Shown: one piece after another, positions 20,089 through 37,971 of the stretch
Position numbering within the stretch: the stretch's first letter is position 1
Layout: every line of letters starts with the position of its first letter
The notes under the pieces: model-generated
Told to the model about the DNA's origin: nothing
Seen by the model: the letters and a program-made list of their open reading frames with translations, nothing else
Database searches by the model: none
Assembly: GCA_018433345.1 (NCBI GenBank)
Contig: JAHDRK010000036.1
Span: 1-58,855 of the forward strand
Length of the DNA stretch: 58,855 nucleotides
Reading direction: 5' to 3'
Source: Syntrophobacterales bacterium
GTDB lineage: Bacteria > Desulfobacterota > Syntrophia > Syntrophales > UBA2210
Translations under genes and position numbers: made by a program

Positions 20089-21026
20089 AATGCGTATGCC
20101 AGGAGGTACGAGATGGAGACCCCGAGGTTAACGACTATGGTAAGGCCGCACAATAGTTCCAGCCTCCCCGGATCGTCGTAAAGGTTCCGCTTCACGGTCG
20201 TTGCGCAGTAAAGGTCGATTGCAACGACAGGCAGAGCGAACCAGACCACTTTAAAAGGAACCCCAAAAAAAGGGGACAACAACATGGTAATGGAGACCAG
20301 GAGAGCCGCCGCGATGTAAAGCGTTCTACCTCCTTCTTTGCCCAGGCGGCAGAGCAGATTTTTTTTCCCCGAGATCATGTCCGCTTCATAATCAGGAAAT
20401 TCGTTGAGAAGGATGACGTTGAAGATTGAGAGGCCGACGGGAAGAGATATCCAGTGGATAACCGGAAAGACGGTTCCCGCTTGTATGTAGCAGGCCGCGG
20501 CAATGGGAAGCCACCCGAAACAGAAACCTATGAACAGTTCGCCGACGCCCCGCTTGACCAGGCGGATCGGTTCGGTGGAATAGAAAAAACCCGGCAGGGC
20601 GCCCATGAAACCGAGGGCAAGCGTCCAGGGCCCGGTTTGATAGACGAACCGGAGAATGATCCCTATCGCCAGGGCTGCTGAAAGGCTGATGACGCTTGTA
20701 TAAAGCGGTACGGCAGGCGGCATTTTCCCCGATGGCATCACGCCGGAACCACCGGCGAAAGGGTTTTTGTGAATGCCGGCGGAGATGGAATCCTCTTTCC
20801 GGTCGAAATATTCGCCGGCATGATAGGTGGAAAGCATTATGAGGATGACGGCCGCCACGCCCAGAAGAAATATTTCCAGGTTAAAGACCTGCCCCAGGCG
20901 AAAGGCCAGGAGGGTTCCCAACAGGAAGGGGATGACGCCCACGAGATGGAAAGGGAGGCGGGACAGGGCGATCCATCCCCCGATCATTTTTCCCGCCGAA
21001 TGCACCGCCGGTTGGGTTCCCGTCAT
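20085..21026 (-). CDS. UbiA-family prenyltransferase (MenA-like)
   Basis: Multi-TM; EYFD...D, FAGGSG, YS..P.RL, NE.PDYEAD...GK.NL motifs; start uncertain (21026 or 21071). Confidence 0.85.
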   Translation of the reverse strand: MTGTQPAVHSAGKMIGGWIALSRLPFHLVGVIPFLLGTLLAFRLGQVFNLEIFLLGVAAVILIMLSTYHAGEYFDRKEDSISAGIHKNPFAGGSGVMPSGKMPPAVPLYTSVISLSAALAIGIILRFVYQTGPWTLALGFMGALPGFFYSTEPIRLVKRGVGELFIGFCFGWLPIAAACYIQAGTVFPVIHWISLPVGLSIFNVILLNEFPDYEADMISGKKNLLCRLGKEGGRTLYIAAALLVSITMLLSPFFGVPFKVVWFALPVVAIDLYCATTVKRNLYDDPGRLELLCGLTIVVNLGVSISYLLAYAL

Positions 21027-21276
21027 ATTGGTCTCCGTTTTCTTCCGATGTCGCCCGGAGGCACATACCACAAGTTTCTCCTTTTGTCATCGTCTTGAAC
21101 GGTGATCAGCGGAAAATAATTGAGCGAAACCCTCCCGTGAAGGGAATTGCCGTGTAAATTTATGGTATCGAAATGAACCGGAAGCGGCTTCGTGGCTCGT
21201 CGGAGCGGCATCCATCTCGGCGTACCTGTGAGTAAGGGCGAAAGACGCGAAGAACAGGCCTTCCCGCCTTATTTTG

Positions 21277-23290: not shown

Positions 23291-23641
23291 ATGCATGAAC
23301 TGCCGATTACCGAAAGAATTCTGAAAATCGTACTGAAACATGCCGAGAGGAATGCCGTGAGCAAGGTACTCACGATCCGCCTGGGTGTCGGTTCTTTGAG
23401 CGACCTGGAAGATGATTGGCTTCAGCATTATTTTAATTACCTCGGCAAAGGAACCGTTGCCGAGGGGGCAAGACTCGACATCGAGCGTCTTCCCGCACGC
23501 GCCCTGTGCGATGCCTGTTCGAAAACCTTTGACGTTCCAAAAGGCGGGATCAGGGGAATGAAATGTCCTGCCTGTGGAGGTGGGAACGCCACGCTCCTGT
23601 CGGGTCGCGAATACTTTATCAAAGAAATGGAGGTCCTCTGA
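23291..23641 (+). CDS. hypA: nickel metallochaperone HypA
   Basis: MHE N-terminus, two CxxC, SGRE. Confidence 0.94.
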   Translation: MHELPITERILKIVLKHAERNAVSKVLTIRLGVGSLSDLEDDWLQHYFNYLGKGTVAEGARLDIERLPARALCDACSKTFDVPKGGIRGMKCPACGGGNATLLSGREYFIKEMEVL

Positions 23642-24318
23642 TGGACGAAATACGACTCATCGAAGTAAAGGAAGATATTCTCGCGGACAACAACAGGCTT
23701 GCCGACGAACTGAGGACCCGCCTGAAGGAGAAAGGCACGCTGCTGATCAACATCATGTCTTCGCCCGGTTCGGGAAAGACGAGCCTGATATTGAAAACCA
23801 TCGACGCACTGGGTGAAGACATCAGGCTGGGCGTCATAGAGGCGGACATCGAGTCTAAAGTGGACGCGGAAAAGGTTTCGCTGCGGGGCGTCCCGGTCGT
23901 TCAGATACGCACGGGGGGGTTTTGTCACCTGGACGCGAACATGGTCAACCAGGGTCTCGAGGCCATGGAACAGCACACCGTTGACGTCCTCATGATCGAA
24001 AACGTGGGAAACTTGGTCTGTCCCGCGGAATTTGACACCGGGGCCCACAAGAACGTCATGATCCTGAGCGTCCCCGAGGGGGACGACAAGCCTCTCAAGT
24101 ATCCCCTCATGTTCAGTGTCTGCGATGTTCTTCTGATAAATAAGATCGATTACCTTGCCTTGGCTGATTTTGACGGTGAGGCGCTCCGCCGGCACGTTTT
24201 CGCCCTCAATCCCACCATAAAGATATTCGAGGTGTCCTGTAAGACAGGCGAAGGCATTCCTGATTGGGCCGCCTGGCTCAGGGAACAGCGGGAGGCCTTC
24301 GTGAAGGAATGGTCTTGA
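23641..24318 (+). CDS. hypB: nickel incorporation GTPase HypB
   Basis: SSPGSGKT, CHLDA, ENVGNLVCPA, EGDDKPLKYP, NKID; 1-nt overlap with hypA stop. Confidence 0.95.
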   Translation: MDEIRLIEVKEDILADNNRLADELRTRLKEKGTLLINIMSSPGSGKTSLILKTIDALGEDIRLGVIEADIESKVDAEKVSLRGVPVVQIRTGGFCHLDANMVNQGLEAMEQHTVDVLMIENVGNLVCPAEFDTGAHKNVMILSVPEGDDKPLKYPLMFSVCDVLLINKIDYLALADFDGEALRRHVFALNPTIKIFEVSCKTGEGIPDWAAWLREQREAFVKEWS

Positions 24319-24804: not shown

Positions 24805-26316
24805 ATGAAAAGAGAAAAAACAGCAAAGAATGAAATGTTGACGAGAAGAAATTTTCTGAAGGCAACGGGAGGAGCGACCTTGGCCGGAGTCGCGGCGGGG
24901 ACGCTTCTTGCCGATTCCCGCAAGGCCTTCGGTGCCACCACGATGCCTGAAAAATGGGACAGGGAAGTGGACGTTGTAGTAGTCGGTGCGGGCGGCGCCG
25001 GTTTCGCCGCGGCGATCGAGGCGGCCGAGAAAGGTGCCGAGGTTGAGCTCCTCGAGAAAACACCAGTCATCGGCGGGAGCAGTATTATTTGCGGCGGCGC
25101 CCTCTGTTTCGCGGGAACCGATATGCAGAAAGCGGAGGGGATCAAGGATTCCAATGAGTTGCTCTATGAAGACCTCATGAAGGTGGGGGAAAACAAGAAT
25201 ATCCCCGCACTTGTCAAGACATATGTCGATCATCAGTTGGAGACTTACGAGTGGTTGAAAAAACTGGGCGTTAATTTTTTCAAGTTGGGGATTGCAAGTG
25301 GCATGAGCGTTCCACGCGGACACTACGTGAAACCCGGTGATGTTCTGAAGATCCTCAATGACAAGGCAAAAGCAGGCGGAGTCAAGCTGGTTACCAGGAC
25401 GCCCGCTCGGAGGCTTGTCATGGATGAAAAGAACGGAAAAATCAGGGGAGTTATCGCCGAGAGCAGGGGTAAAGAAGTCAGCTATGGTGCGAAAAGGGGT
25501 GTTGTCCTGGCCTCGGGAGGGTTTTCCCTGAACAAGGATCTCCTGGAAAAATTCGTTCCACCTATGGCCAACGCGAAGGTAATCAACGGACTGGGAAACG
25601 AGGGTGACGGTCTGAAGATGGCATGGGCGTATGGCTCCGATATTCAGGATATGCCTTATATCAAGGCCACCTTTGGATTCACGCTCGATCCGAAAACCAT
25701 CGCCGAGGACTTCGCATTGATCTTCTACCAAGGGGCGATTATCGTGAACAAGGAGGGGAAACGGTTTGTCGACGAGTCAAAATCGTACAAGCTCGTTGGT
25801 GATGCGGCCCTTGTGCAGCCCGGCGCCATGGGGTTTCAGATATTTGACTCGATGATCAGAGAAAAAGGGATGTCCGATCCATTGGGGCGGACCGCCGGGT
25901 TGGAAGAGCGTGGTCTCATTTATTCCGCACCTACGTTGAAGGAACTTGCCGAGAAGATAGGTGTCCCCTCCGATACCCTTGAAGAAACGGTCAAGACCTA
26001 CAATGTCGACGTGGAAAAGGGCATGGATTCACAATTCGGAAGGAAGGCACTTGTTGCGAGCTTCGGCAAGCCCGTGAAGATAGAAAAACCGCCCTTCTAT
26101 GCCTTTCCATCGACCGCGGCTATCCTTGGTACCTACGGTGGTATTTTGATCAACGAGAAAACCCAGGTGATCGATGTGTTCGGTGACGTGATTCCGGGTT
26201 TGTACGCGGCTGGAGAAATTATCGGGGGAGTGCACGGTGCCGCCTACATGACGGGAACCGCCTTCGGCAAGGCACTTATATTCGGCAAGCTGGCCGGAAG
26301 CGAGATCCTTCGATAG
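24805..26316 (+). CDS. Tat-exported flavocytochrome c-type FAD oxidoreductase (FAD_binding_2), not a fumarate reductase
   Basis: TRRNFLK Tat motif; VGAGGAG FAD motif; GLYAAGE; fumarate-reductase HPT, HHTMGG and HGANR residues replaced; GAGGAGG RBS before ATG 24805. Confidence 0.88.
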   Translation: MKREKTAKNEMLTRRNFLKATGGATLAGVAAGTLLADSRKAFGATTMPEKWDREVDVVVVGAGGAGFAAAIEAAEKGAEVELLEKTPVIGGSSIICGGALCFAGTDMQKAEGIKDSNELLYEDLMKVGENKNIPALVKTYVDHQLETYEWLKKLGVNFFKLGIASGMSVPRGHYVKPGDVLKILNDKAKAGGVKLVTRTPARRLVMDEKNGKIRGVIAESRGKEVSYGAKRGVVLASGGFSLNKDLLEKFVPPMANAKVINGLGNEGDGLKMAWAYGSDIQDMPYIKATFGFTLDPKTIAEDFALIFYQGAIIVNKEGKRFVDESKSYKLVGDAALVQPGAMGFQIFDSMIREKGMSDPLGRTAGLEERGLIYSAPTLKELAEKIGVPSDTLEETVKTYNVDVEKGMDSQFGRKALVASFGKPVKIEKPPFYAFPSTAAILGTYGGILINEKTQVIDVFGDVIPGLYAAGEIIGGVHGAAYMTGTAFGKALIFGKLAGSEILR

Positions 26317-26455
26317 GATAAAAAAACAGGATTTGTTATATGTAAAGACAGATGATTATTAAGCGTCATCACTTCCGACGGAAGTTTCCGGCTCAATTTA
26401 AGCTAATTTTTAGGTGATCTTGAAAGATGACACCCTTGAGTGGAGGAGATGCGGT

Positions 26456-26610
26456 ATGATTAAAGAAAAGAACCACCGGAAATGAACTGACAAGAAGAAG
26501 TTTCCCCAAGGCAGCGGGAGGCAAGGCGCCGACCGGGGATCACGGCGGCCCATTGCCGGCCGGACCGCAAGAGGCCTTCGCCGCCGACATGCCGGATAAA
26601 TGTGATTTCG
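26456..26610 (+). pseudogene. decayed 5' fragment (RBS, Tat leader, start of mature domain) of a paralog of 24805..26316
   Basis: Frameshifted translation NELTRRSFPKAAGG...EAFAADMPDKCD aligns with NEMLTRRNFLKATGG...KAFGATTMPEKWD. Confidence 0.7.
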
Positions 26611-26716
26611 CCTTTCTCCGGGTGGCGGGATGTGAACGTAGGCTGGGTGTTTGCGAATTTATTGATAGTTTTTAAAGCAAAATAAGCCGTATTTTAAATG
26701 ATGAGTACTATGAACA

Positions 26717-26839
26717 ATGACAAGGCTCTGAAGGGGTCGGAAACTTGTGAGGCGAGGTTTTCTAAAGGCGACGGATGGGGCCGCGGTGACCAGTGTGGCA
26801 TCAGGAGCGTTGCTCGCAGTCAGAATGGAACTTGAGTAA
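26717..26839 (+). pseudogene. second decayed Tat-leader fragment
   Basis: MTRL*RGRKLVRRGFLKATDGAAVTSVASGALLA aligns with LTRRNFLKATGGATLAGVAAGTLLA. Confidence 0.65.
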
Positions 26840-26953
26840 AATAGGAACTCTAGATAGCGATGGGGAGGGTTACATCTTCCCGCCGCCTCTCTAACATCAC
26901 GGTATCGCTTAATATCTACACCGGTTCGTGCCGGTTTACCCGTGGAGGCGCCT

Positions 26954-29353
26954 ATGAAAGACAATCGGATACATATGAGAAGATGGAGGGTGGCACGGAG
27001 TTGTTTCGTCATCCTTGCGGTGATTATTTCTTTAGCGTTCTTTCATGTCGAAGCCGGTGTAAAGGATTCATCCTGGGCAGCGGAACCCGAGCGTCTGATG
27101 ACAGTGCGGGGCGGAGACTGTGCAGCCTGTCACGGGAGCGACGATAAGCTGTCCGAGGGGCACCTGGATACGAAAGGGATGAGTCTAAAGCAGTGCCTTG
27201 CATGTCACGGGAAAGACGATCCGGCACTAACCAACACGCTGCCCTTGAGCCATACGCATCTGCTCAGCGGAGTCACCTGCAAGGCCTGTCACGGAGATGC
27301 GGATCCGCCCGAGTTCGTTGGCATCGACAAGTGCGTCACTTGTCATGATCTCGGTGAATTGGTGAATGCCACGGCTGGACACAGTGAGGCCAATCCCCAT
27401 GATTCTCATTACGGTCCCGAGTTGGATTGCGATCTGTGTCACCATGTTCATTCAGAGTCCGAGAATTTTTGCAATCAATGTCACGATTTTAGTTATGTCG
27501 TACCTTCACCGATCTTGAAACCAGGCAAGGCGTCCGTCGGGGTTGAACCAGCCGAACAAACCGAGGAAAAAAAAAGTGAAACGGTAACGGAAAATGCAAA
27601 GCAGGAACAAAATTGCCTGTCCTGTCATGGGAAGCCCGAATACGGCGAAAAGTTTGCGCAGTCGGCTCACGGGGTTCTGGCCTGCTCAACCTGTCACAGG
27701 GGCATCGATGACATAACTGCCCACATGAAAAAGGAGGAGAAACCTGCGCTTACGGACTGTGCGGGCTGTCACCGCGAGATCGCCGGGCTGTACGAGAATG
27801 ACGTGCATTTTCTGCGGGGCGGGATGTCCTGTGTCGACTGCCACGGTGATATCCATGTCCGCGTTAAGGATGAAGGCGTCTCAAAAAGAGCGGTCATAAA
27901 GCGATGTACAACCTGTCATGACGAGGAGACCTACTCTTTCCTGGGGCATGGGAACGCCGTTTTGGGTGGAAACGAAGACGCGGCGGCCTGTTCTGACTGT
28001 CACGGACTCCATGGCATACCGGCGTATGACGATACAGAGGGGGCGCAGAGATGGAAGCGCGAGGCATACACGATTGCCTGTATATCGTGCCACGACGATT
28101 CGGAATTGGTTGAACGGAACGACCTCAATCCCTTTGTAACGGCAGGATATTTAAACACCTACCACGGCAAGGTATTCAATCTCGGTTTCCCGGAGCAGGT
28201 GGCCGGGTGCCCCGATTGCCATAAAAGCCACAACATCCTACCCCAAGACGACCCGCGATCGGCAATCCATCCGAACAACCTGGAAAAAAGTTGCGCCCGG
28301 TGTCACAAGGGATTTCATCAGCGATTCTTGTCGTTTTATGCCCATCCCGATCCCGACGATCGGTCGAACTATCCGATTCTATACTGGGCTAATGTCTTCA
28401 TGATCGTCCTCTTGGCCTCGGTTTTCATTTTTTTCTGGACGCATATAGCTCTGTGGTGGAGAAAGGCCTACTGGGAAAAATGGCGGCAAAGGACGTCAGT
28501 CGAAAGAGAGACCTCCTCCGAAGAAGACGTGGTGTACGTCAGGCGTTTTTCGTGGCGTGATCGGATAATGCATCTGCTGCTGATCTTTTCCTTTTTCATG
28601 CTTGTCATGACAGGGTTCCCGCTCAAGTACCACGATGCTCCATGGGCGGTTGTTTTGCTCGGTCTTTGGGGTGGTCCGGAAGCGGCCGGATTTCTTCACA
28701 GGTTTGCTGCTGCCGTACTGTGGGGGCTCTTCCTTTATACATGCTGGCTGAGTCTGCGCTTTCTCTTCCCCGGCGGCCGGGTAAAGGGTTGGACGGGCAG
28801 ACTGTTTGGGCCGGAATCGCTGTTTTTCAATTTGAAGGACTGGGAAGATCTCAAGGGGATGTTTCGATGGTTCTTTGGGAAAGGGGAGATGCCGCGCTTC
28901 GAACGATGGACCTACTGGGAAAAATTCGATTTCTTTGCTGTCTTTTGGGGAATGTTCGTGATCGGTCTCTCCGGGTTGATCCTGTGGTTTCCCGAAAAAT
29001 CATCCTATATCTTGCCTGGTTGGATGATAAACATGGCGGTGGTGCTCCATTCTGAAGAGGCGTTTTTGGCGGCGATCTTTATTTTCACCGTTCACTTTTT
29101 CAACAATCATCTTGTGCCCAACAAGTTTCCCCTTGAACCGAACATTTTCACGGGGCGGTACAGCATATCGGCACTGAAAAAGGAGCGTCCCGAGGAGTAC
29201 GAGAGAATAATAGCCGAGAATCGCCTGGAGGAACTCAAGACCGAGCCGCCGGGCCCGCTCTGCCGTTTTGCATCGGCTGTTATCGGGATCGCATCGGTTT
29301 TGCTTGGTTTGTTGCTGACCGTTCTGATTTTCTGGGCGGCTCTTTGCTGGTAA
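26954..29353 (+). CDS. 15-heme cytochrome c fused to an FdnI/HydC-type cytochrome b (CbcL-like quinol oxidoreductase with extra N-terminal hemes)
   Basis: 15 CxxCH motifs (6 + linker + 9); C-terminal TM domain with RIMH, LHR, YWEKFDFFAVFWG, HSEEA.LA...IF.VHFFN.H; GGAGG RBS. Confidence 0.85.
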   Translation: MKDNRIHMRRWRVARSCFVILAVIISLAFFHVEAGVKDSSWAAEPERLMTVRGGDCAACHGSDDKLSEGHLDTKGMSLKQCLACHGKDDPALTNTLPLSHTHLLSGVTCKACHGDADPPEFVGIDKCVTCHDLGELVNATAGHSEANPHDSHYGPELDCDLCHHVHSESENFCNQCHDFSYVVPSPILKPGKASVGVEPAEQTEEKKSETVTENAKQEQNCLSCHGKPEYGEKFAQSAHGVLACSTCHRGIDDITAHMKKEEKPALTDCAGCHREIAGLYENDVHFLRGGMSCVDCHGDIHVRVKDEGVSKRAVIKRCTTCHDEETYSFLGHGNAVLGGNEDAAACSDCHGLHGIPAYDDTEGAQRWKREAYTIACISCHDDSELVERNDLNPFVTAGYLNTYHGKVFNLGFPEQVAGCPDCHKSHNILPQDDPRSAIHPNNLEKSCARCHKGFHQRFLSFYAHPDPDDRSNYPILYWANVFMIVLLASVFIFFWTHIALWWRKAYWEKWRQRTSVERETSSEEDVVYVRRFSWRDRIMHLLLIFSFFMLVMTGFPLKYHDAPWAVVLLGLWGGPEAAGFLHRFAAAVLWGLFLYTCWLSLRFLFPGGRVKGWTGRLFGPESLFFNLKDWEDLKGMFRWFFGKGEMPRFERWTYWEKFDFFAVFWGMFVIGLSGLILWFPEKSSYILPGWMINMAVVLHSEEAFLAAIFIFTVHFFNNHLVPNKFPLEPNIFTGRYSISALKKERPEEYERIIAENRLEELKTEPPGPLCRFASAVIGIASVLLGLLLTVLIFWAALCW

Positions 29354-29403
29354 TTGAGAAATAAACACCGTCAAGAAAAGGCATGAACAAGTTACTGGTT
29401 GAG

Positions 29404-29439
29404 ACTGAGGCAGGGAGAGTGTTCTTCCCCTGCCTCAGT
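29404..29439 (+). terminator. stem-loop after the cytochrome gene
   Basis: ACTGAGGCAGGG...CCCTGCCTCAGT 12-bp stem with only a short T tail. Confidence 0.55.
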
Positions 29440-29575
29440 TTGTCATGACAGGCGAAGAAACTTGGTTTTTTTGACCAACAGGCCCCGGTCTTGAGAATCC
29501 CGCCTGCCGTCTTTCCCTGAGATTGAAAATGTTACACGAGAATTTTTTTACAACAAAGAGCTGACACACTTCATC

Positions 29576-30898
29576 ATGAAGAAAATTTTAAAAGCCCTGG
29601 CCTCGGTAAAACTGACGCTTTTTCTTTTTCTGGCGCTGGTTGTGATCTGCGTTCTCGGGACCCTGGTACCCCAGGGACTTCCCGTGGAACATTACAGGGA
29701 AGCGTACGGTCCGGGCATGGCATCTTTCATCGAATTTTTTCATATCTACGACCTGTACCGTTCATGGTGGTTCACCGTCCTTCTTTTTTTCTTCGCCGTC
29801 AACATCGCGGCCTGTGCGGCAAGATGGGCGCCCGGCATTCTCAAGCGTGCCTTTTCACAGGACAAAATAGGAGACGGCGGGGTATTTGAAAACGCTCCCG
29901 TAAAGAGGAGCTTTAAGGGTTTCAACGAAGTAGAGCATGATGTGGAGCAGGCCCGTTCGCTAATTCAATCTGTCGTAGGCAAACCGAAGGTAATGAGCCG
30001 GGATGGAAAAACTTACCTGTTCGCTGAAAAAGGGCGCTATGCGCGGGTTGGAGTGGTCGCCGTCCATGTCAGCATTCTCGTGATTCTCGGTGGAGGATTG
30101 GTTGGTTCAATTTGGGGGTTCAGCGGACAGATGAAGATCGTCGAGGGATCGTGGTCAAACAGGATAGAACTTTCGGGCGGGGGGACCAAGACCCTTCCCT
30201 TCGCCTTGGCCTGCGACGAGTTTTCCCTTTCTTTTTATGAAAACGGCATGCCCCGCGAATATCGGTCTGAAGTGGCGATCCTCGAAAATGGAGAGAGGGT
30301 TCTCTCCGCAACTATCAGGGTAAACGAGCCTTTGAAGTATGGGGGCTTGAAGTTCTGCCAGGCGACCTACGGGATAGCCGAGGCGACTGGTTTTGTGATA
30401 GCTGTCGCGGACGAGGGCGATGGAGATGAGAACTTCCTGGTCCTGGAGCTGATGAAAAAGGTTCCCTTGCCGGGCAACGAGGTCTCGGTTGCGGCGGCCC
30501 GGTTCGCTCCCGATTTACAGGGGAGGGGCCCTGCCTTGATGGCTGTACTGATCCGCCCTGGGATGCCCCATGACATATTTTGGATTATACAAGGCGAACC
30601 GATCAGTCACGGCGGATACATCTTCGATTTCAAGGATTTCGAGGTTCGATTCTATACAGGCATACAGGTGAGCGGTGATCCCGGTGTTCCACTGGTCTGG
30701 ACAGGGTTTTTCATGATTCTGGCAGGTTTCACCGTTTGTCTGTCGGGTCCCCATCGGCGGGTCTGGGTGCGGATTACTCCGTCGGAAGAGGGTGGAAACA
30801 TCTTGATTGCCGCCGATCCCGGCAGGAACAGAAAAGGATTCGAGGAACGCCTCGACGAAGCGTGTCGGGTGGCCTTTGCCGAGGGACTTCATGGATGA
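29576..30898 (+). CDS. resB: cytochrome c biogenesis protein ResB/CcsB (System II)
   Basis: LASVKL, GTLVPQG, DLYRSWWF, conserved His in VHVSIL, VNEPL.YGG, DPG.PLVW.G. Confidence 0.9.
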   Translation: MKKILKALASVKLTLFLFLALVVICVLGTLVPQGLPVEHYREAYGPGMASFIEFFHIYDLYRSWWFTVLLFFFAVNIAACAARWAPGILKRAFSQDKIGDGGVFENAPVKRSFKGFNEVEHDVEQARSLIQSVVGKPKVMSRDGKTYLFAEKGRYARVGVVAVHVSILVILGGGLVGSIWGFSGQMKIVEGSWSNRIELSGGGTKTLPFALACDEFSLSFYENGMPREYRSEVAILENGERVLSATIRVNEPLKYGGLKFCQATYGIAEATGFVIAVADEGDGDENFLVLELMKKVPLPGNEVSVAAARFAPDLQGRGPALMAVLIRPGMPHDIFWIIQGEPISHGGYIFDFKDFEVRFYTGIQVSGDPGVPLVWTGFFMILAGFTVCLSGPHRRVWVRITPSEEGGNILIAADPGRNRKGFEERLDEACRVAFAEGLHG

Positions 30899-31718
30899 TA
30901 CCTATCTTATCAGCATAACGACATTTGTATATTTCGCCGCCGCGCTTATTTATACTGTCTCCACCGTGTTCGGACGTCGGCGGGTGGAACGGTTTGCAAC
31001 TGTTGTAGCGGCGGCCGGATTCATTATCCATACCGGGGCAATAATCACACGGTGGGCCCTGTCACACCGCATGGGAATCGGACACGTTCCATTGGCGAAC
31101 TTTTACGAGTCGCTGGTCTTTTTCTCGTGGTCCCTCGCCGTGGTGCTCCTATGTGTACAAGTAAGGTACAAAAACGGGGTTATAGGCGCCGTTATCTCTC
31201 TTTTTGCCTTTATTCCCCTGGCCTATGCCTCCCTCTCAGGGGCGGTGGACACGCGCATACAACCGTTGATCCCGGCACTGCAAAGCAACTGGCTTATAAG
31301 TCACGTGATCAGTGCCTTTCTTGCCTACGCCTGCTTTGCAGCTTCCTTTGCCGCCGCCGTGCTCTATCTCTTTGCAAGTAAGCCGCGAGGCCGCATTGCC
31401 GCATACCTTCCTCCCCCGAAGTTCTTTGACGAACTTGCCTACAGGTTCGTATCCATTGGTTTTCCACTCCTGACATTGGGAATTATAACAGGTGCCGTAT
31501 GGGCCGATGCGGCCTGGGGCAGGTACTGGGGGTGGGATCCCAAGGAAACGTGGTCGCTCATAACATGGATGATCTACGGCGCCTACATCCACGCCGGCCT
31601 GGTGAGGGGCTGGAGGGGAAAGCCGATGGCCCTCATCTCGATCGCAGGTTTTGTGGCGGTTATCTTCACTTATCTGGGGGTGAACTACGTACTCTCGGGA
31701 CTTCACAGTTATATTTAA
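30891..31718 (+). CDS. ccsA: cytochrome c biogenesis heme lyase CcsA/ResC
   Basis: H.PL.N.YESL, PALQSNWL..HV, WWD motif WGRYWGWDPKETW, GLHSY. Confidence 0.93.
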   Translation: MDDTYLISITTFVYFAAALIYTVSTVFGRRRVERFATVVAAAGFIIHTGAIITRWALSHRMGIGHVPLANFYESLVFFSWSLAVVLLCVQVRYKNGVIGAVISLFAFIPLAYASLSGAVDTRIQPLIPALQSNWLISHVISAFLAYACFAASFAAAVLYLFASKPRGRIAAYLPPPKFFDELAYRFVSIGFPLLTLGIITGAVWADAAWGRYWGWDPKETWSLITWMIYGAYIHAGLVRGWRGKPMALISIAGFVAVIFTYLGVNYVLSGLHSYI

Positions 31719-31771
31719 TTTAACCGAGGACTTTTTAGAGTCTGCAAATCAAAGAGTTAGGAGGTTCAACC

Positions 31772-33268
31772 ATGATTGGAAAGAAATTATTTGTTTTGGT
31801 TGCGATACTCACCTTTGTCATGGCTGGTCAGGCGCCGGTTGTAGCCGAGACGACATCAACGGACGTCGTTGTCGTGGGTGCGGGTGCCGCGGGATTGGCT
31901 GCGGCCGTCACGGCCGCCGAAGGAGGCGCGAAGGTCGTTTTGCTGGAAAAGATGCCTACAGTCGGCGGAACGACCAACTTTGCCGAAGGTGTCTTTGCAG
32001 TTGAAAGCCGCCTGCAGCGGGAAAAAAATATCGCTTGCAGCCGCGACGATTTATTCAAATACCTGATGGAATACACTCACTGGCGCGCCAACGCCCGGCT
32101 GGCCCGGGCTTTCATCGATAAGTCCGCGGAAACCATCGAGTGGCTGGAGGATCGAGGCGTTGTATTCAAAGAGCCGGCGGCCAATTATCCCGGCGGTCTC
32201 ATGACGTGGCATATCGTGGAAGGGCGCGGCAAGTCGCTGGCTCAGGCACTTTATGACAGGGCCAGGGAAAAAGGCGTGACGGTTATGCTCAGGACAGCCG
32301 GTAAAGAGTTGATAAAGGACGATGACGGCCGCATCTCCGGGATCATTGCTGAAGGCGCCGGCGGCAAAAAAATCAAAATCGACAGTAGGGTCGTAATCAT
32401 TGCCACCGGTGGATACATCAACAACAAGGAAATGTTGGATAAATATACGGCCTTTGGCAGAGACATCATCCCGGTGGGTAATGTCGGCAAAAACGGCGAG
32501 GGCATCCTGATGGCCTGGGCGGCGGGCGCCGACGAATTCGGCACGGAGGTGCTGCAGCTTTATCGCCCCGGCATCCCCGGGGAGGGTCCGGAATCGCACC
32601 TCAACGCTCCCGCCCGTCAGCCCTATCTCTGGGTAAACAAGCTGGGAGACCGTTTCTGCGACGAAAGCATTATCTTCTCATGGCCCTTTGCGGGTAACGC
32701 CCTTGCCAACCAGCCCGGACGCGTCATGTATGTCATTATCGATGAGAACACGAAAAAGTACATGATAGAAAAAGGCATCGATGTGGGCGTGGGTGTGATG
32801 GTTCCCGTGGCTACCAAGCTGACCAACCTGGAGAGCGATATAAAACGCGGCCTTGATAAGGGCTTTGTTTTCGCGGCCTCTTCCATAGGAGAACTTGCGG
32901 AAAAAATCGGAGCGCCGCCGGCGCGACTACAGGCCACCGTGGAGGAGTACAACAAGATGGCCGATCAAAACAAGGATACCCTTTTCGCTAAAGATCCCAA
33001 ATACCTTCAGCCGGTCAGGACGGCCGACTTTTACGCCTTTAAAGCCGTTCCTTTCGCCTTGGGCACCCTCGGCGGTATTAAGATCAATCATAAAACCGAG
33101 GTCTTGGACAAAGGCCAAGAGGCTATCCCAGGTTTGTACGCCGTTGGGAACGACGCGGGAGGCATGTACGGCGACAGCTACGACGTGGTTCTTGCGGGGA
33201 GCACCCTCGGTTTTGCCGTCAATTCCGGGCGTATCGCCGGTGAAAACGCCTTGGAGTATCTAAAATAA
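31772..33268 (+). CDS. exported FAD-dependent oxidoreductase (flavocytochrome c/KstD-like family)
   Basis: Sec-type signal peptide; VGAGAAG; GGTTNFAEG; LGTLGGI; GNDAGGMYGDSY...G.TLGFA.NSG. Confidence 0.87.
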   Translation: MIGKKLFVLVAILTFVMAGQAPVVAETTSTDVVVVGAGAAGLAAAVTAAEGGAKVVLLEKMPTVGGTTNFAEGVFAVESRLQREKNIACSRDDLFKYLMEYTHWRANARLARAFIDKSAETIEWLEDRGVVFKEPAANYPGGLMTWHIVEGRGKSLAQALYDRAREKGVTVMLRTAGKELIKDDDGRISGIIAEGAGGKKIKIDSRVVIIATGGYINNKEMLDKYTAFGRDIIPVGNVGKNGEGILMAWAAGADEFGTEVLQLYRPGIPGEGPESHLNAPARQPYLWVNKLGDRFCDESIIFSWPFAGNALANQPGRVMYVIIDENTKKYMIEKGIDVGVGVMVPVATKLTNLESDIKRGLDKGFVFAASSIGELAEKIGAPPARLQATVEEYNKMADQNKDTLFAKDPKYLQPVRTADFYAFKAVPFALGTLGGIKINHKTEVLDKGQEAIPGLYAVGNDAGGMYGDSYDVVLAGSTLGFAVNSGRIAGENALEYLK

Positions 33269-33295
33269 TGATATGCCCATGGTAACATCGGATCT

Positions 33296-33330
33296 GCCGG
33301 AGAAGCGTAGTAACTACGGTTCTCTCCGGC
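33296..33330 (+). terminator. GC-rich stem-loop after flavoprotein gene
   Basis: GCCGGAGA...TCTCCGGC with inner CGTAG/CTACG pairing; no U tail. Confidence 0.35.
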
Positions 33331-33370
33331 TGGTCCACGATTTCCCTGCCGGGTTTGCCGGACGTGGAGC

Positions 33371-34546
33371 ATGACCAGTCCAAGAAAATTAGACATATTT
33401 CAGGGCCTGTTTGTTGTAGTTTTTGCCGTAACGCTCGGTTTCTCGGTGGTTAATCCGTTTTTTTCCGTTTACGTAAAAACACTTACGGAACGGGGATTGT
33501 TCATCGCGCTTGTCTTTTCAGGGTTTTTCCTGGCAAAGGTTATCTTTACTCCGTTTTTGTGCAGGAGGTCTGATTTTGCGGACAGGAGAATTTTCATCTT
33601 TGCCGGCCTCGTATTGCACACGATTGTCGCCTTTTTCTTTTTTCTCTTGCCGGAGAACGTGTTTTTCATCATTGTTTTACGGTTCCTCCAGGGTGTGGCC
33701 ACGGCCATGGTCCGTCCCGTCGCACAGGCGATCGTCGGTGACATTTCTCCTGAAAATCACGAGGGAACCTCAATGGGCACCTTCGATGTATCCTTCTACA
33801 TAGCCGCCGGAATCGGTCCCCTGCTAGGCGGGGCGGTGGGTGACATCATTGGATATAGGGGTATATTCGGGATACTTTTGTTGTTGTGTTTCATCGCGCT
33901 TCTTGTCTTGCTTGCAACTATGAGAGGGGGAACCCGGAGCTGTGCGAATCACATCGGTGACGTCAAGGAGGTAAAAACTGTTTTCGAAAATCCGAGATTG
34001 CAGGGGCTCTTCCCCTACATATTAACAAGGTCTTTCGGTATCGTTATCATGCCGGTCTTTCTTCCATTATTGCTTTATACCCGTTTTCATACCAATCACT
34101 TGGAAATCGGGATCTGCATCGCGGCGGGTCCCATTACCACGGCCTTGCTGCTCCGAGGAACGGGAAAACTTTCGGATCGTTGGAATCGCAAAACACTGGT
34201 AGCAGCGGGAGGTGTCGCGAGCGGGCTTTTTATGCTTTGTGTCCCGCTTGTGCAAAGTTTTTGGTTGATCGTGATTCTCTGCGTTTTACTGGCTTGCTCA
34301 AGCGCACTTTCCTTGCCCGCCAGCACCGCATTGCTGGTGGAAGAGGGCCGGGTCCACGGCCTGGGGTATACTATGGGACTTTTTCACACCGCCATGAATA
34401 TCGGATTCTTCCTGGGACTGATTATAGCGGGATTGTTGATGGACACCTTGGGAATTAGCAGCATTTTCTTTGCTGCCGGTTTGTTGGTCATGCTGGGGAC
34501 TTTGTTCTTTGTCCTCCGCCTCCACGGCATGGCGTGGGAACTATGA
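33371..34546 (+). CDS. MFS transporter
   Basis: About 12 hydrophobic segments; LRFLQG and GKLSDRWNRK motif-A repeats. Confidence 0.9.
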   Translation: MTSPRKLDIFQGLFVVVFAVTLGFSVVNPFFSVYVKTLTERGLFIALVFSGFFLAKVIFTPFLCRRSDFADRRIFIFAGLVLHTIVAFFFFLLPENVFFIIVLRFLQGVATAMVRPVAQAIVGDISPENHEGTSMGTFDVSFYIAAGIGPLLGGAVGDIIGYRGIFGILLLLCFIALLVLLATMRGGTRSCANHIGDVKEVKTVFENPRLQGLFPYILTRSFGIVIMPVFLPLLLYTRFHTNHLEIGICIAAGPITTALLLRGTGKLSDRWNRKTLVAAGGVASGLFMLCVPLVQSFWLIVILCVLLACSSALSLPASTALLVEEGRVHGLGYTMGLFHTAMNIGFFLGLIIAGLLMDTLGISSIFFAAGLLVMLGTLFFVLRLHGMAWEL

Positions 34547-34798
34547 TGATCTCTCTGCAAACTCTCTTGTGATTTCAACCGCCGAATCGGTTTTTATGAA
34601 CCATGAGGTTCTCCCGAACTTGTTGAAGGGCAGGACGCGAAGAGGGTGCAGGATGTATTCCATGTTTTGAGGATCTTGTCGAGTGATGAAAGGGGAACGT
34701 TGATTATAGCCCTCTCGCGGTTATAATCCGGACTTAAAGTAAGGTTTGTGTATTATATATATTTTTGATCCAAGGAAAAAACAATATGGAGGTGTGGT

Positions 34799-35374
34799 AT
34801 GAAGGTAGCTGGTTTCAACGGTAGTCCGCGTAAGGACGGCAATACCGCCTTGATGATCGAGGCGGTTTTTGAGGAACTTAGGAAAGAGGGGGTGGAAACG
34901 GAGCTTGTCCATGTAGCCCGCGGGCCGGTCCGGGGGTGCAAGGGTTGTCTCACGTGTGCGAAAAAGTTGAACAGGCGTTGTGTTGTCGATGATGATATAG
35001 TAAACGAATGCATTGAAAAGATGATTGATGCAGACGGTATCATCCTTGGGTCACCCACCTATTTCACCGACGTCACTGCCGAGATGAAGGCGCTTATTGA
35101 CCGGGCGGGAATGGTTTCGATAGTCAACGGCGGCATCTTAAAACATAAAGTGGGAGGAGCGGTCACGGCGGTGCGAAGAGGTGGAGCGATACATACCTTC
35201 GACACCATGAACCACTTCCTTCATTACATGCAGATGTTCCTGGTGGGCGCCAGTTATTGGAACATGGCCTATGGATTCAAGGCGGGCGAGGTGAAGGAGG
35301 ATGGGGAAGGAATGGCCAACATGAAATCGCTTGGTGAAAACATGGCATTCCTGCTCCGAAAGCTTAAAGGATGA
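34799..35374 (+). CDS. iron-sulfur flavoprotein (Isf-like flavodoxin family)
   Basis: GSPRKDGNT, CKGCLTC...C, GSPTYF, RRGG. Confidence 0.9.
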   Translation: MKVAGFNGSPRKDGNTALMIEAVFEELRKEGVETELVHVARGPVRGCKGCLTCAKKLNRRCVVDDDIVNECIEKMIDADGIILGSPTYFTDVTAEMKALIDRAGMVSIVNGGILKHKVGGAVTAVRRGGAIHTFDTMNHFLHYMQMFLVGASYWNMAYGFKAGEVKEDGEGMANMKSLGENMAFLLRKLKG

Positions 35375-35607: not shown

Positions 35608-36717
35608 ATGAACAAGATCGAAAGGGCGTTGATGCACGGCTTGTTTGTTCATCTGCATCACAACATCGACAAGGTAATCGATTTCAAGGGTTTCGAGGAA
35701 CTCAACCGGCAGGTTGCAAAGGTGTGGCCCGGCGCTTTACTCGTTGGCCCGGAAGCCAACGATGATGCCGCGGTATTTCAGCTTCCCGGGATGAACGGCT
35801 ATATTGTGGGCAAGATGGAGAGTCATTGCTCCCCTTGTGTGCCGCGTCCCTATGACGCTGCGGCCACCGGTGCAGGCGGGGCCATGCGAGACGTGGTCGC
35901 CATGGGAGGCCGCCCGGTGTTTCTCCTGGATTTCATCGGGACGCGACCCCTTGAAGAGGAGGTGATCGTGGGGCCCTGCGGTTTCTCCGGCCGCTGCACC
36001 TGTGGCAATTGCAAGGTGATGACCAGCGGGGAACGGGTCGATATCATGATCAAAGGCATCAGGGACATGTGTGCTCAGTTGGACGTGTTCGTAGTGGGAG
36101 GCGGGTTTTCCACTTCTTTTTCCGATATAGTGCCGGCGGTGGTCTGTGCCGTAATAGGGAAGTTGGTGACCGAGAAACCGCTTACCAAGCCCGCAAAGAA
36201 TCCTGGCGACAAGCTCGTTTTGATCGGGATCACCGGCAATGACGGTAACGACACTTTGTACCGCGCAGGCCTGGTGGATGAAATGAGACCGGCCCTGGCT
36301 CTCTTTAAAGAAGAAAAGATCGCCATGGAGGCTATTCTCGCCGCTTTTTCCACCGGGAAGATAAACGCCTGCTCCGACCTGGGCGCCGCCGGTCTGGGCG
36401 CCGCCGTATGCGAGTCGGCCAGGTTCGGCTCATTGGGGGCGCGGGTCGATCTTACAAAGGTTCCCGTGTCGGTTAAAGATATAACGCCCGAGGAAGTTCT
36501 TATCTGCGAGACCCAGGCGCGTTACCTGATCCAGGTTTCTCCCGATTCGGTGGACGAGGTCGTTGAGGCCCTTCGCACCAAAACCGAAAACGTGGCGGTA
36601 ATCGGAGAAATAGTGAAAGACGACAAAGAGGTATTCGAGTATGACGGCAAGGTGATCGCCGAGATACCCAATAAACCGTCAAGGGAAACCCTTGAGGCCC
36701 TGAGCAAAGCGGAATGA
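35608..36717 (+). CDS. stand-alone PurL-like (AIR synthase/PurM superfamily) ATP-dependent enzyme, single half only
   Basis: K.ESH..P, AATG.GG..RD..AMG.RP, G..G.DG, DLGAAGL, E.Q.R motifs of the PurL N-half; only 369 aa; ATG 35608 after AGGAGA. Confidence 0.8.
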   Translation: MNKIERALMHGLFVHLHHNIDKVIDFKGFEELNRQVAKVWPGALLVGPEANDDAAVFQLPGMNGYIVGKMESHCSPCVPRPYDAAATGAGGAMRDVVAMGGRPVFLLDFIGTRPLEEEVIVGPCGFSGRCTCGNCKVMTSGERVDIMIKGIRDMCAQLDVFVVGGGFSTSFSDIVPAVVCAVIGKLVTEKPLTKPAKNPGDKLVLIGITGNDGNDTLYRAGLVDEMRPALALFKEEKIAMEAILAAFSTGKINACSDLGAAGLGAAVCESARFGSLGARVDLTKVPVSVKDITPEEVLICETQARYLIQVSPDSVDEVVEALRTKTENVAVIGEIVKDDKEVFEYDGKVIAEIPNKPSRETLEALSKAE

Positions 36718-36777
36718 AGGGCCCCCCGGGCATCATATAGTCCGAGTCACCCGGTGAAAGAAAGCCTGGAGAACTAA

Positions 36778-37971
36778 GTGACGCGATACGATCGTTATTC
36801 AATGCCGCCCGCCGAAGAAACGGCCGAACTGACCGCCCTCGCAGCGGAGCTGGTGGAACGGAAATTTAAGCAGTTCGGATATCCCTTCGATCAAGGGGTC
36901 GCCATGACGGCCTATAACAAGTGGTTGGTGGACACCGGCCTTGCTGATATCACTCTGATAAACGTGGGTGATCCATGGAAGAAAGACTGGGACATGCTCT
37001 CCAGCGACGTGATCGAACGGAAGGTGCTCGATTTCTGGGCGAAGCATTACGGGTTCGAGGACAATTACTGGGGCGTCATAACCAACGGCGGCACGGACGG
37101 CAATATGCACGGCATCTATTTCGGCAGAAAGCTGCTGGAAAGGGAAACGGGAATCATGCCGATCCTGTACGTATCGGAGGAGGCGCACTATTCCGTCAAA
37201 AAACTGGCAGATGTACAGAATATTGAAGAGTGCGTGGTGAGGGCCTCCCCGGCGGGGCGGATGGACACGGAAGACCTGGAAGCGAAGCTCGATCCGTCGA
37301 GGCCGGCGCTTATAGTGATCGCCGTAGGGGGCACCTTCAAGTCGGCCATCGACGACCAGGAGGCCGTAAGCGCGGTGGTCGAACGTGTCGGACCCTGTGC
37401 CGTATACCGCCACGTGGATATGGCACTTATGGGTGGATACCTGCCCTTCCTTGACGATCCGCTGGCACGGTCCGTCGTGGACGTGCGGAAGATGCGCTTC
37501 GATTCTCTCGCCGTTTCAGGGCACAAGTTCATAGCCCTCAATGAACCGTGCGGGATGTTCATCTGCAAGCGCGAGGTGCTGGAGAAAACAAGATCCGCGC
37601 CGATTCCCTATCTTGCCGACAAGGTGATCCCCACTATCAGCTGCTCACGCAGCGGATTCGCCGCCTTGAAGATGTACTGGAGAATCGCCGTCACAACGGA
37701 AGAAGGCTTCCGGAGGCAGGCGAAACATGTACTGAAAATGACGGAATACCTGCGACGCAGGTTGGAAGACACGGCTCTCTTTACCCTCGTCAATCCCTTT
37801 GCCAATACCGTTTGCTTCACGCGCCCCGCGGATCGCATAGTCCATGAGTACGCCTTGGCTTGTAATCAGACGGCCGAGTTTGGATGCCTGGCCCACGTGG
37901 TGGTGATGCAGTACTTTACCGAGGAACTAATCGACCGCTTCATCGATGACATGATTTCTTCCACGGTGTAA
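36778..37971 (+). CDS. PLP-dependent group II amino acid decarboxylase (histidine/serine decarboxylase-like)
   Basis: GYP, N.GDPW, NGGTDGN..G, HYSV.K, H.D.AL.G..LPF, SGHK (PLP lysine), SRSG. Confidence 0.85.
   Translation: MTRYDRYSMPPAEETAELTALAAELVERKFKQFGYPFDQGVAMTAYNKWLVDTGLADITLINVGDPWKKDWDMLSSDVIERKVLDFWAKHYGFEDNYWGVITNGGTDGNMHGIYFGRKLLERETGIMPILYVSEEAHYSVKKLADVQNIEECVVRASPAGRMDTEDLEAKLDPSRPALIVIAVGGTFKSAIDDQEAVSAVVERVGPCAVYRHVDMALMGGYLPFLDDPLARSVVDVRKMRFDSLAVSGHKFIALNEPCGMFICKREVLEKTRSAPIPYLADKVIPTISCSRSGFAALKMYWRIAVTTEEGFRRQAKHVLKMTEYLRRRLEDTALFTLVNPFANTVCFTRPADRIVHEYALACNQTAEFGCLAHVVVMQYFTEELIDRFIDDMISSTV

Follow-up and report, generated by a model that had tools for sequence, protein, structure and literature searches.

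Two kinds of electron transfer system, so far studied separately, are the closest described counterparts of the locus reported here, which consists of seven genes around a 15-heme cytochrome on contig JAHDRK010000036.1 of a Syntrophobacterales bacterium (GenBank: GCA_018433345.1). The window, meaning the whole stretch of DNA that was analysed, is 58,855 nucleotides long and is one entire contig of a 2.13-Mb, 93%-complete genome. The first kind is represented by Mrd/Mcc of Geobacter sulfurreducens AM-1 (PMC4427408) and ArdAB of Shewanella woodyi (10.1101/2024.02.11.579808). In both, a heme-less flavoprotein with a twin-arginine translocation (Tat) signal and an FAD_binding_2 domain (Pfam: PF00890) is encoded beside a Sec-type multiheme partner of the flavocytochrome c3 (Fcc3) heme family. 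The carrier between menaquinone and Mcc is stated to be unknown, with a 67.6-kDa membrane cytochrome c listed as a candidate (PMC4427408), and ArdA required its tetraheme partner ArdB and showed no reverse reaction (10.1101/2024.02.11.579808). The second kind is CbcL (GSU0274) of Geobacter and the CbcL/MtrH/MtoC family, in which nine CxxCH motifs precede a HydC/FdnI-like membrane domain with conserved histidines; heme counts of 3-23 have been reported in this family before (PMC6295460, PMC9129911).

The fused cytochrome and its flavoprotein neighbours

In the window, elements of the two systems are joined in a single protein. The same-strand run of seven genes described in an earlier note on this DNA was recovered as seven open reading frames (ORFs), all on the + strand and with unchanged coordinates (24805-35374). 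The gene spacing is not operon-like throughout, with 637 bp between the first flavoprotein gene (Fp1) and the cytochrome gene, 222 bp between cytochrome and resB, an 8-bp overlap of resB and ccsA, 53 bp between ccsA and the second flavoprotein gene (Fp2), 102 bp between Fp2 and a major facilitator superfamily (MFS) gene, and 252 bp from there to an Isf-like gene. The features are as follows.

24805..26316, + strand: Fp1, heme-less FAD_binding_2 (PF00890) flavoprotein with Tat signal; residues K287-x-T289, Y308, Y328-K329, G442-x-Y444 and Y481
26443..26605, + strand: relic 1, decayed 5' end (ribosome-binding site, Tat signal, start of the mature protein) of a lost flavoprotein gene
26732..26830, + strand: relic 2, a second and weaker Tat-signal-like remnant
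26954..29353, + strand: fused cytochrome with signal/anchor, 6-heme module, charged linker, CbcL-type 9-heme domain and diheme-b membrane domain
27074..27526, + strand: 6-heme module of the cytochrome; hemes 3-6 match PF14537
27602..29353, + strand: CbcL-like part with nine CxxCH and the membrane domain; His539, His581, His698 and His713 (numbered from codon 26957)
29400..29445, + strand: strong RNA hairpin (by folding energy) between cytochrome and resB, a terminator or stabiliser
29576..30898, + strand: resB, system II cytochrome c maturation
30891..31718, + strand: ccsA/ccsB heme lyase subunit (TIGR03144, 260 bits, cut-off 188)
31772..33268, + strand: Fp2, Sec-type FAD_binding_2 flavoprotein, VprA-like; Y264-R265-P, W304, G431 and Y470
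33371..34546, + strand: MFS transporter, belonging to a clade that accompanies Sec-type Fp2 genes
34799..35374, + strand: FMN_red/Isf-like protein, outside the conserved core

The 15 CxxCH motifs of the cytochrome are split 6 + 9 by the charged linker, and its C-terminal half is hydrophobic. The earlier note's 15-heme cytochrome c/b is confirmed and its role as a heme wire is supported, but the most informative feature, the fusion of CbcL to a flavocytochrome-type module, went unrecognised. The nine CxxCH of the CbcL-like part fall at residues 220-450, ahead of the membrane domain, and this part shares 44% identity over 588 columns with a 9-heme protein from an uncultured Geobacter (L071). Beyond residue 470 there are five hydrophobic segments above the threshold and a weak match to TIGR01583, and the membrane histidines 539, 581, 698 and 713 are invariant in 97/97 rows. 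The protein therefore has the nine-CxxCH domain and the HydC/FdnI-like membrane domain with heme-b histidines of the CbcL/MtrH/MtoC family, a class assignment made from the family description and the Geobacter homologue rather than from the GSU0274 sequence.

Hemes 3-6 of the module match not only PF14537 but also the heme domain of flavocytochrome c3, and the module as a whole is a homologue of the 6- and 7-heme proteins that serve Tat flavoproteins as separate partners. One such 7-heme protein, 239 aa long, aligns along the full module with 99.6% probability, and Mcc homologues have the same tabulated size and heme count (PMC4427408); the likeness of the module to Mcc is thus by way of an Mcc-sized protein and tabulated counts, not of the Mcc sequence itself. 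By its domain make-up, the protein joins a CbcL-type membrane cytochrome to a 6-heme module of flavocytochrome type. The partner cytochromes of Mrd and ArdA are soluble, whereas the one predicted here has six hemes and is part of a membrane CbcL. Compared with CbcL, it has an extra N-terminal flavoprotein-partner module and its neighbours are flavoprotein genes, not porin-cytochrome genes; the partner shown for Geobacter CbcL is the triheme PpcA. The parts and the respiratory logic are known already and the arrangement is new. A literature search, with most subscription journals outside its coverage, found no paper linking CbcL to a flavin reductase.

The fused form is patchily distributed. 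Full-length fusions occur in 4/36 genomes of the same family and in 0/5 of the same genus, and the module is present in 19/401 genomes of the phylum, our own genome counted. Out of 12 protein clusters with the module on a long chain, 11 have 15 CxxCH and all 12 have the CbcL membrane motif.

We surveyed 97 CbcL-like ORFs in the retrieved loci, a set that leaves out the window and in which some genomes may be counted twice. A PF00890 gene lies within 700 bp of 9/10 module-bearing CbcL genes and of 1/87 module-less ones. The module-bearing gene with no flavoprotein neighbour has just 766 bp of upstream flank; among the module-less genes, 6/87 have a PF00890 gene within 6 kb, and 28/87 have less than 2.5 kb of flank on one side. 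The sole module-less exception (genome G444, L194:2235-6746; G- and L-numbers stand for relatives' genomes and loci, C12, C26, C64 and C99 for parts of our own genome) has a stand-alone module, a 13-heme protein, a cytochrome b and a flavoprotein with a GPW site in one run, and is by its gene content a split form of the chain. Likewise 22/28 separate module ORFs adjoin a flavoprotein gene, and CbcL-like proteins with 19-21 hemes have neither module nor flavoprotein neighbour. The module marks the CbcLs that stand beside flavoproteins.

Which flavoproteins stand there changes from relative to relative. Around the fused gene there is one in G022 (the Fp1 orthologue, 79%), three in G020, three in G011 and two in G017, and in all four genomes resB-ccsA precedes or follows the cluster; resB was not seen in the retrieved flanks of the other six fused loci. 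One flavoprotein beside the fusion in each of G020, G011, G017 and L002 has Trp, Val(+13), Arg, His and Arg at the spacing of the Mrd methacrylate reductase residues W311, V324, R353, H461 and R501 (PMC4427408), all of which Fp1 and Fp2 lack. The expectation that the seven genes are conserved together holds for the cytochrome, one or more variable Tat flavoproteins and resB-ccsA, which alone form the recurrent core. It fails for Fp1, whose orthologue adjoins the cytochrome in 1/4 same-family fusion genomes and is located elsewhere in a second, and for Fp2-MFS and Isf, which are not beside the fused gene in the relatives examined. The spacer between Fp1 and the cytochrome holds two remnants, which fits loss of Tat-flavoprotein genes here. 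Relic 1 has a local DNA score of 127.5 against the Fp1 5' end (best of 300 shuffles 67.5) and 58% protein identity to the N-terminus of one flavoprotein beside the G020 cytochrome. Relic 2 matches relatives' signal peptides with a tblastn E of 1e-7 in a search within this spacer, and its DNA score of 66.5 is about that of the best shuffle (65.5). Flavoprotein genes turn over between the loci of relatives.

Our own genome encodes six such flavoproteins, four of them with no cytochrome neighbour, and the only proteins with more than one CxxCH are the fused cytochrome and one triheme protein in a Dsr-like cluster. Three of the four remote flavoproteins cluster with flavoproteins whose genes, in other genomes, lie next to the module. 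This supports the view that the remote flavoproteins may use the fused cytochrome in trans, so that several flavoproteins would share one cytochrome, unlike in Mrd/Mcc and ArdAB.

Some of the further flavoprotein genes have settings of their own. At C64:265-5988 a Tat flavoprotein with a GPW (Mrd-like) site is faced by three ORFs, namely a Tat-signal protein of 862 aa that by inspection resembles a catalytic subunit of the molybdopterin family, a 4Fe-4S subunit and a chaperone-like protein. At C26:15570-18746 a Tat flavoprotein (HHTMGG, HGTNR) and a Sec-type Fp2-like flavoprotein stand in tandem near heme biosynthesis genes, with no cytochrome neighbour. As a separate observation outside this genome's set, the proteins P0337, P0342, P0343, P0368 and P0408 are 1000-1500 aa long and combine an FMN-binding domain (FMN, flavin mononucleotide) with 2-3 tandem FAD_binding_2 domains.

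We think it probable that electrons pass from menaquinol through the CbcL-type cytochrome and its module to the flavin adenine dinucleotide (FAD) of a docked flavoprotein and on to a C=C acceptor, with several flavoproteins served. By analogy with CbcL, the membrane cytochrome would oxidise menaquinol, and electrons would run from heme b over the nine c-hemes to the six-heme module. Periplasmic flavoproteins would dock on the module, as the homology to the flavocytochrome c3 heme domain and the Mcc-sized partners suggest, and the FAD would give hydride to the double bond with a tyrosine as proton donor. The cytochrome would be a hub for Fp1, Fp2 and up to four flavoproteins encoded elsewhere, ResB-CcsA would mature it, and the MFS protein would serve Fp2 through flavin supply or through traffic of substrate or product. 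Docking, substrates and the direction, taken as reduction of an organic acceptor, are what we infer here. The chain from quinol over a heme wire to flavoproteins, of the Mrd/Mcc kind, that the earlier note had proposed is supported, with non-fumarate active sites and with no characterised orthologue found.

Active sites and relatives of the two flavoproteins

Fp1 has the twin-arginine motif TRRNFLK and matches the flavocytochrome c model TIGR01813 with 343 bits (cut-off 285). Fp2 has a Sec-type N-terminus by inspection and no twin arginine. The motifs LGTYGG and HGAAY in Fp1 and LGTLGG and YGDSY in Fp2 are present as described earlier. Fcc3/FccA and UrdA share the FAD-domain fold, and their tetraheme domain is homologous to the module; here that heme domain is on a membrane cytochrome and not on the enzyme. 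The active-site residues His365, Arg402, His504 and Arg544 of flavocytochrome c3, of which Arg402 is the catalytic acid (roles from 10.1101/2022.01.20.477176), are all replaced. In Fp1 they are Thr289, Tyr328, Gly442 and Tyr481, with Phe/Ala/Phe at Thr377, Glu378 and Arg381; in Fp2 the His365 position falls at Tyr264/Arg265, and the other three are Trp304, Gly431 and Tyr470. The absence of the fumarate-reductase residues is thus upheld and extends to Arg402, which the earlier note had overlooked. Its pairing of HPT with KAT or YRP is right in that the motif is replaced but wrong in register: Q-A-H-P-T pairs with K-A-T-F-G, which puts His365 on Thr289 and not on the lysine of Fp1.

Among 68 aligned sequences out of 120 Fp1 homologues listed, K287, T289, K329, Y444 and Y481 are invariant (68/68), Y328 is kept in 62/68, Y308 in 63/68 and G442 in 51/68. 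The Fp1 clade contains Tat proteins of Parasutterella and signal-less proteins of Planococcus, Streptomyces, Variovorax, Rhodococcus and others; in 400 other genomes of the phylum its profile had no match (3 candidates scored per genome). Six of 11 plasmid matches to Fp1 were inspected and all six lie among catabolic and carboxylate-transport genes, one of them beside electron transfer flavoprotein (ETF) genes; K-T-Y-Y-K is kept in 4/6 and partial in 2/6. These neighbours indicate an organic-acid substrate for Fp1. Our guess is an unsaturated carboxylate, with Tyr328 and Tyr481 in place of two arginines and Lys287 and Lys329 perhaps binding the anion. The predicted fold of Fp1 (predicted local distance difference test 93.5) is closest to UrdA 6t85 (Z 47.4), followed by flavocytochrome c3 1qo8 (Z 43.8) and delta-4 KstD, with KstD structures at Z 39-43; a VIA structure search with this model returned the expected fold and nothing else.

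None of the equivalog models for KstD, TcuA, ChcC and Cgr1 was passed. For the two flavoproteins the KstD models gave 212.5 and 173.1 bits (PRK12844, cut-off 789) and 186.8 and 149.6 bits (PRK07843, cut-off 788), and the TcuA model NF006130 gave 215 and 194 bits (cut-off 369). The Cgr1 model NF051471 gave 24 bits over residues 128-181 (54 residues, cut-off 340). Mrd/Mcc is matched in the pairing of a Tat flavoprotein gene with a Sec multiheme partner of the Fcc3 heme family; its site residues are absent from Fp1 and Fp2. Cgr1/Cgr2 of Eggerthella lenta is similar in having a PF14537 cytochrome beside a Tat flavoprotein and a tyrosine near the flavin; Cgr2 requires Fe-S clusters and can do without Tyr532, the tyrosine that it has in common with KstD (PMC5953540). 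The best named family for Fp2 is the vinylphenol reductase VprA (NF053717, cut-off 600), with 425.9 bits for Fp2 and 202.7 for Fp1; Fp2 differs in carrying an export signal and in lacking an FMN-binding domain. A tyrosine at the Arg544 position, as in Fp2, is also seen in the Tyr-type cinnamate reductases of Holdemania and Eggerthella. This exchange is found in 3/4 gut reductase clades, and CirA and CirC depend on the tyrosine (10.1101/2022.12.26.521950); Fp1 and Fp2 were set against CirA-D and CrdC/D by published description. Neither protein would thus be filed under any named enzyme on model scores.

A quick, midpoint-rooted tree of 83 selected rows (locus proteins of at least 440 aa, without characterised enzymes) places Fp1, Fp2 and the GPW group in separate supported clades, and for the Fp1 and Fp2 clades we found no member that appears to be characterised. 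As Fp1 and Fp2 fall in different clades, the single substrate proposed earlier for both reductases is unlikely. A heterodimer of Fp1 and Fp2 as in CrdAB was considered and rejected: CrdA is an NADH:flavin domain (10.1101/2023.03.04.531086), and the two genes are separate in relatives.

Fp2 and the MFS gene form a unit of their own in relatives: in G020 it lies 1.5 Mb away from the cytochrome gene, and in G372 it is on a contig other than that of the cytochrome. In these two genomes and in L235 the pair is joined by a divergent sigma-54 activator, which is absent at the window locus. A plasmid search with Fp2 at 1e-80 gave no match. The locus is thus not self-contained, as Fp2-MFS is a separate cassette elsewhere and Isf is outside the core. 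One could take Fp1 as the sole client of the cytochrome and Fp2-MFS as an independent cassette that landed downstream of ccsA, with another electron donor or none. The cassettes away from the fusion with their own activator, the tetraheme gene that accompanies the pair in L235 and the missing activator in the window all fit this. However, the cassettes in G020 and G372 have no cytochrome gene while both genomes encode the fusion elsewhere, our own genome has no other multiheme partner, and ccsA and Fp2 are just 53 bp apart; we consider a sole client unlikely.

The MFS protein belongs to a supported clade of 8 out of 34 tree rows. Seven of these eight are beside or at most 5 kb from a signal-bearing Fp2-type gene, and the eighth is beside a PF14537 tetraheme gene. 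Among 43 signal-less Fp2 homologues for which 700 bp or more of downstream sequence was available, none has a clade member next to it. Signal-bearing Fp2 homologues without a clade MFS occur in L242/G258, G415, G207 and at C26 of our own genome, and the link between MFS and Fp2 may come from shared descent. In three loci (L235, L238 and G360) the neighbour of a Sec-type Fp2 relative is a tetraheme PF14537 gene. The G360 run (L353:6265-16280) has a XylR-type activator, a tetraheme gene, an Fp2-type gene, porin-like and FG-GAP exported proteins, ribBA and, directly after it, the MFS gene; it is possibly an aromatic-induced respiration unit with its own flavin supply. A Sec-exported flavoenzyme must acquire its FAD outside the cytoplasm. 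Flavin export by the MFS protein is therefore plausible, and its place after ribBA offers a basis for this reading; inducer uptake or product export would fit too. The literature search found no MFS flavin exporter, and the ESM Atlas gave generic MFS clusters only. Our guess for the substrate of Fp2 is an aryl-alkene such as vinylphenol or hydroxycinnamate, prompted by the aromatic-sensing activator and the likeness to VprA.

As a separate observation, three Sec-type Fp2-like genes at L346:3519-8242 and two at L345 (both G207) lie amid short-chain dehydrogenase/reductase genes, with no adjoining cytochrome or clade MFS.

Direction and purpose of electron flow

Several points weigh against a menaquinol-driven reductase hub. 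Cytoplasmic homologues with the Fp1 site sit on plasmids of aerobes in catabolic clusters, one beside ETF genes, which fits oxidation. Among the genomes examined, Fp2 is beside the fused cytochrome in our own genome only. The module profile was built from the same loci that it scored, 2/10 fused rows were found by the module search itself, and the related genomes in the survey are not independent. Menaquinone synthesis is only partly seen and is not proven: MenG scores above the cut-off and a gene of the UbiA family is located 4 kb upstream of the locus, but no match to MqnA or MqnD was found in the genome and the best MenB match has 317 bits (cut-off 343). Simple enoate couples have potentials above the -0.1 V limit of CbcL. 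The apparent potential of CbcL in Geobacter is -194 mV, and the protein is shut off above -0.1 V (PMC9129911, 10.1101/2022.08.31.506072); the homologue here would thus need different gating. Homologues of CbcL/MtrH/MtoC have been proposed to be bidirectional (PMC6295460), and active-site residues are poor predictors of substrate in the flavin reductase family (10.1101/2023.03.04.531086).

The same wiring could run in reverse, with Fp1 and perhaps Fp2 as a periplasmic dehydrogenase like KstD, TcuA or ChcC, so that desaturation of organic acids feeds the quinone pool, for instance for Dsr-linked sulfite reduction. The Tyr-rich site and the closeness of KstD structures speak for it, as do, above all, cytoplasmic relatives that share these residues and are encoded in catabolic clusters of aerobes, along with ETF, PrpF, lyases and carboxylate transporters. 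So do MtoC-type homologues proposed as quinone reductases (PMC6295460) and the presence in our genome of dsrAB (C12:938-3119) and a DsrMKJOP-like cluster (C99, judged from ORFs). On the other hand, ArdAB is one-way (10.1101/2024.02.11.579808), Tat members of the Fp1 clade occur in Parasutterella, a genus from a gut group that is rich in respiratory reductases (10.1101/2022.12.26.521950), and the flavoproteins most often found next to this cytochrome carry Mrd sites of the reductase type. We give the reverse direction a low probability. Desaturation coupled to menaquinone is, moreover, uphill.

If the direction is that of reduction, the chain might still act as a sink for enoates and vinyl aromatics that are toxic, to detoxify them or to balance redox, and conserve little or no energy. 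Detoxification has been proposed for ARD of Vibrio harveyi and Crd of Vibrio ruber (10.1101/2023.03.04.531086, 10.1101/2022.01.20.477176), yields with CbcL are low (10.1101/2022.08.31.506072), and an efflux-type MFS and substrate-responsive activators accompany Fp2. Yet the ARD and Crd enzymes are cytoplasmic and NADH-linked, and a 15-heme membrane wire with maturation genes would be a costly, respiratory design, which makes a mere sink improbable. A main role in extracellular or interspecies electron transfer as in Geobacter CbcL, with incidental flavoproteins, is suggested by the homology to CbcL but is highly improbable, because neither a periplasmic shuttle nor an outer-membrane multiheme cytochrome was found in the 93%-complete genome, the module marks exactly the CbcLs beside flavoproteins, and G020 and G017 keep a separate plain 9-heme CbcL.

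The menaquinol-to-flavoprotein hub would have consequences beyond this locus. The fused cytochrome is a candidate for the missing menaquinol-to-Mcc carrier. If the hub is real, small-genome digester bacteria of the Syntrophales type may respire organic double bonds, and acceptors for partner-free culture are suggested; Fp1 and Fp2 are tractable soluble enzymes. A far-reaching combination can be put forward only tentatively and is rather unlikely to hold in full: CbcL would have been rewired from metal respiration to a plug-in hub for partner-free organic-acceptor respiration in uncultured Syntrophales-type anaerobes, CbcL would be the menaquinol-to-Mcc carrier, Fp1 would represent a Lys/Tyr reductase family that is so far undescribed and also present in gut Parasutterella, and the MFS protein would be a flavin exporter that loads Sec-exported apo-flavoproteins.

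Maturation genes, transcription signals and surroundings

The resB gene is the sole ResB match in the genome, and CcmE was not found in the 93%-complete assembly. Therefore resB-ccsA probably matures all c-type cytochromes of the cell and is a general system, not one of the locus's own as had been supposed.

Isf was tried as a core member and rejected. In relatives it is not beside the fused gene: G022 has its orthologue on a separate contig, none was found in G020, G011 and G017, and the retrieved flanks of ten fused loci lack it. A loose link to the MFS gene may exist, the two lying 12 kb apart in G372 and 6 kb apart in G342. A promoter-like site lies ahead of Isf at 34700-34727. Scans for sigma-70 promoters and terminators were near the shuffle level (14 vs 8.5 and 21 vs 14.3, respectively), and no sigma-54 consensus was found upstream of any locus gene or of the related activator-bearing cassettes, so that this negative carries no weight. 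The one sequencing run considered for expression (X1) is probably of DNA; its contigs cover 29 of 30 bins and bear no information about transcription. The hairpin at 29400..29445 has a folding energy of -32.3 kcal/mol (z -4.9, 0/200 shuffles as strong), and there is also a strong hairpin after Fp2.

The closest named homologues carry the labels Syntrophales or Smithellaceae. The dsrAB genes and the DsrMKJOP-like cluster are seen in a 2.1-Mb genome of Syntrophales type. At 18859-21071 (- strand) a UbiA/MenA-like prenyltransferase gene overlaps an AhbD/NirJ2-like radical SAM gene (294 bits, cut-off 500); the two, 4 kb from the locus, are possibly a pair for quinone or heme tailoring. A hypA-hypB pair is found at 23291-24318 (+ strand) in a window without hydrogenase genes. 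On the other side, 35608-37971 (+ strand) holds a PurL/AIRS-like protein of 369 aa, far under the PurL cut-offs, and after a gap of 60 bp a pyridoxal phosphate-dependent decarboxylase nearest to histidine decarboxylase (262 bits, cut-off 305), followed by a cation-efflux gene.

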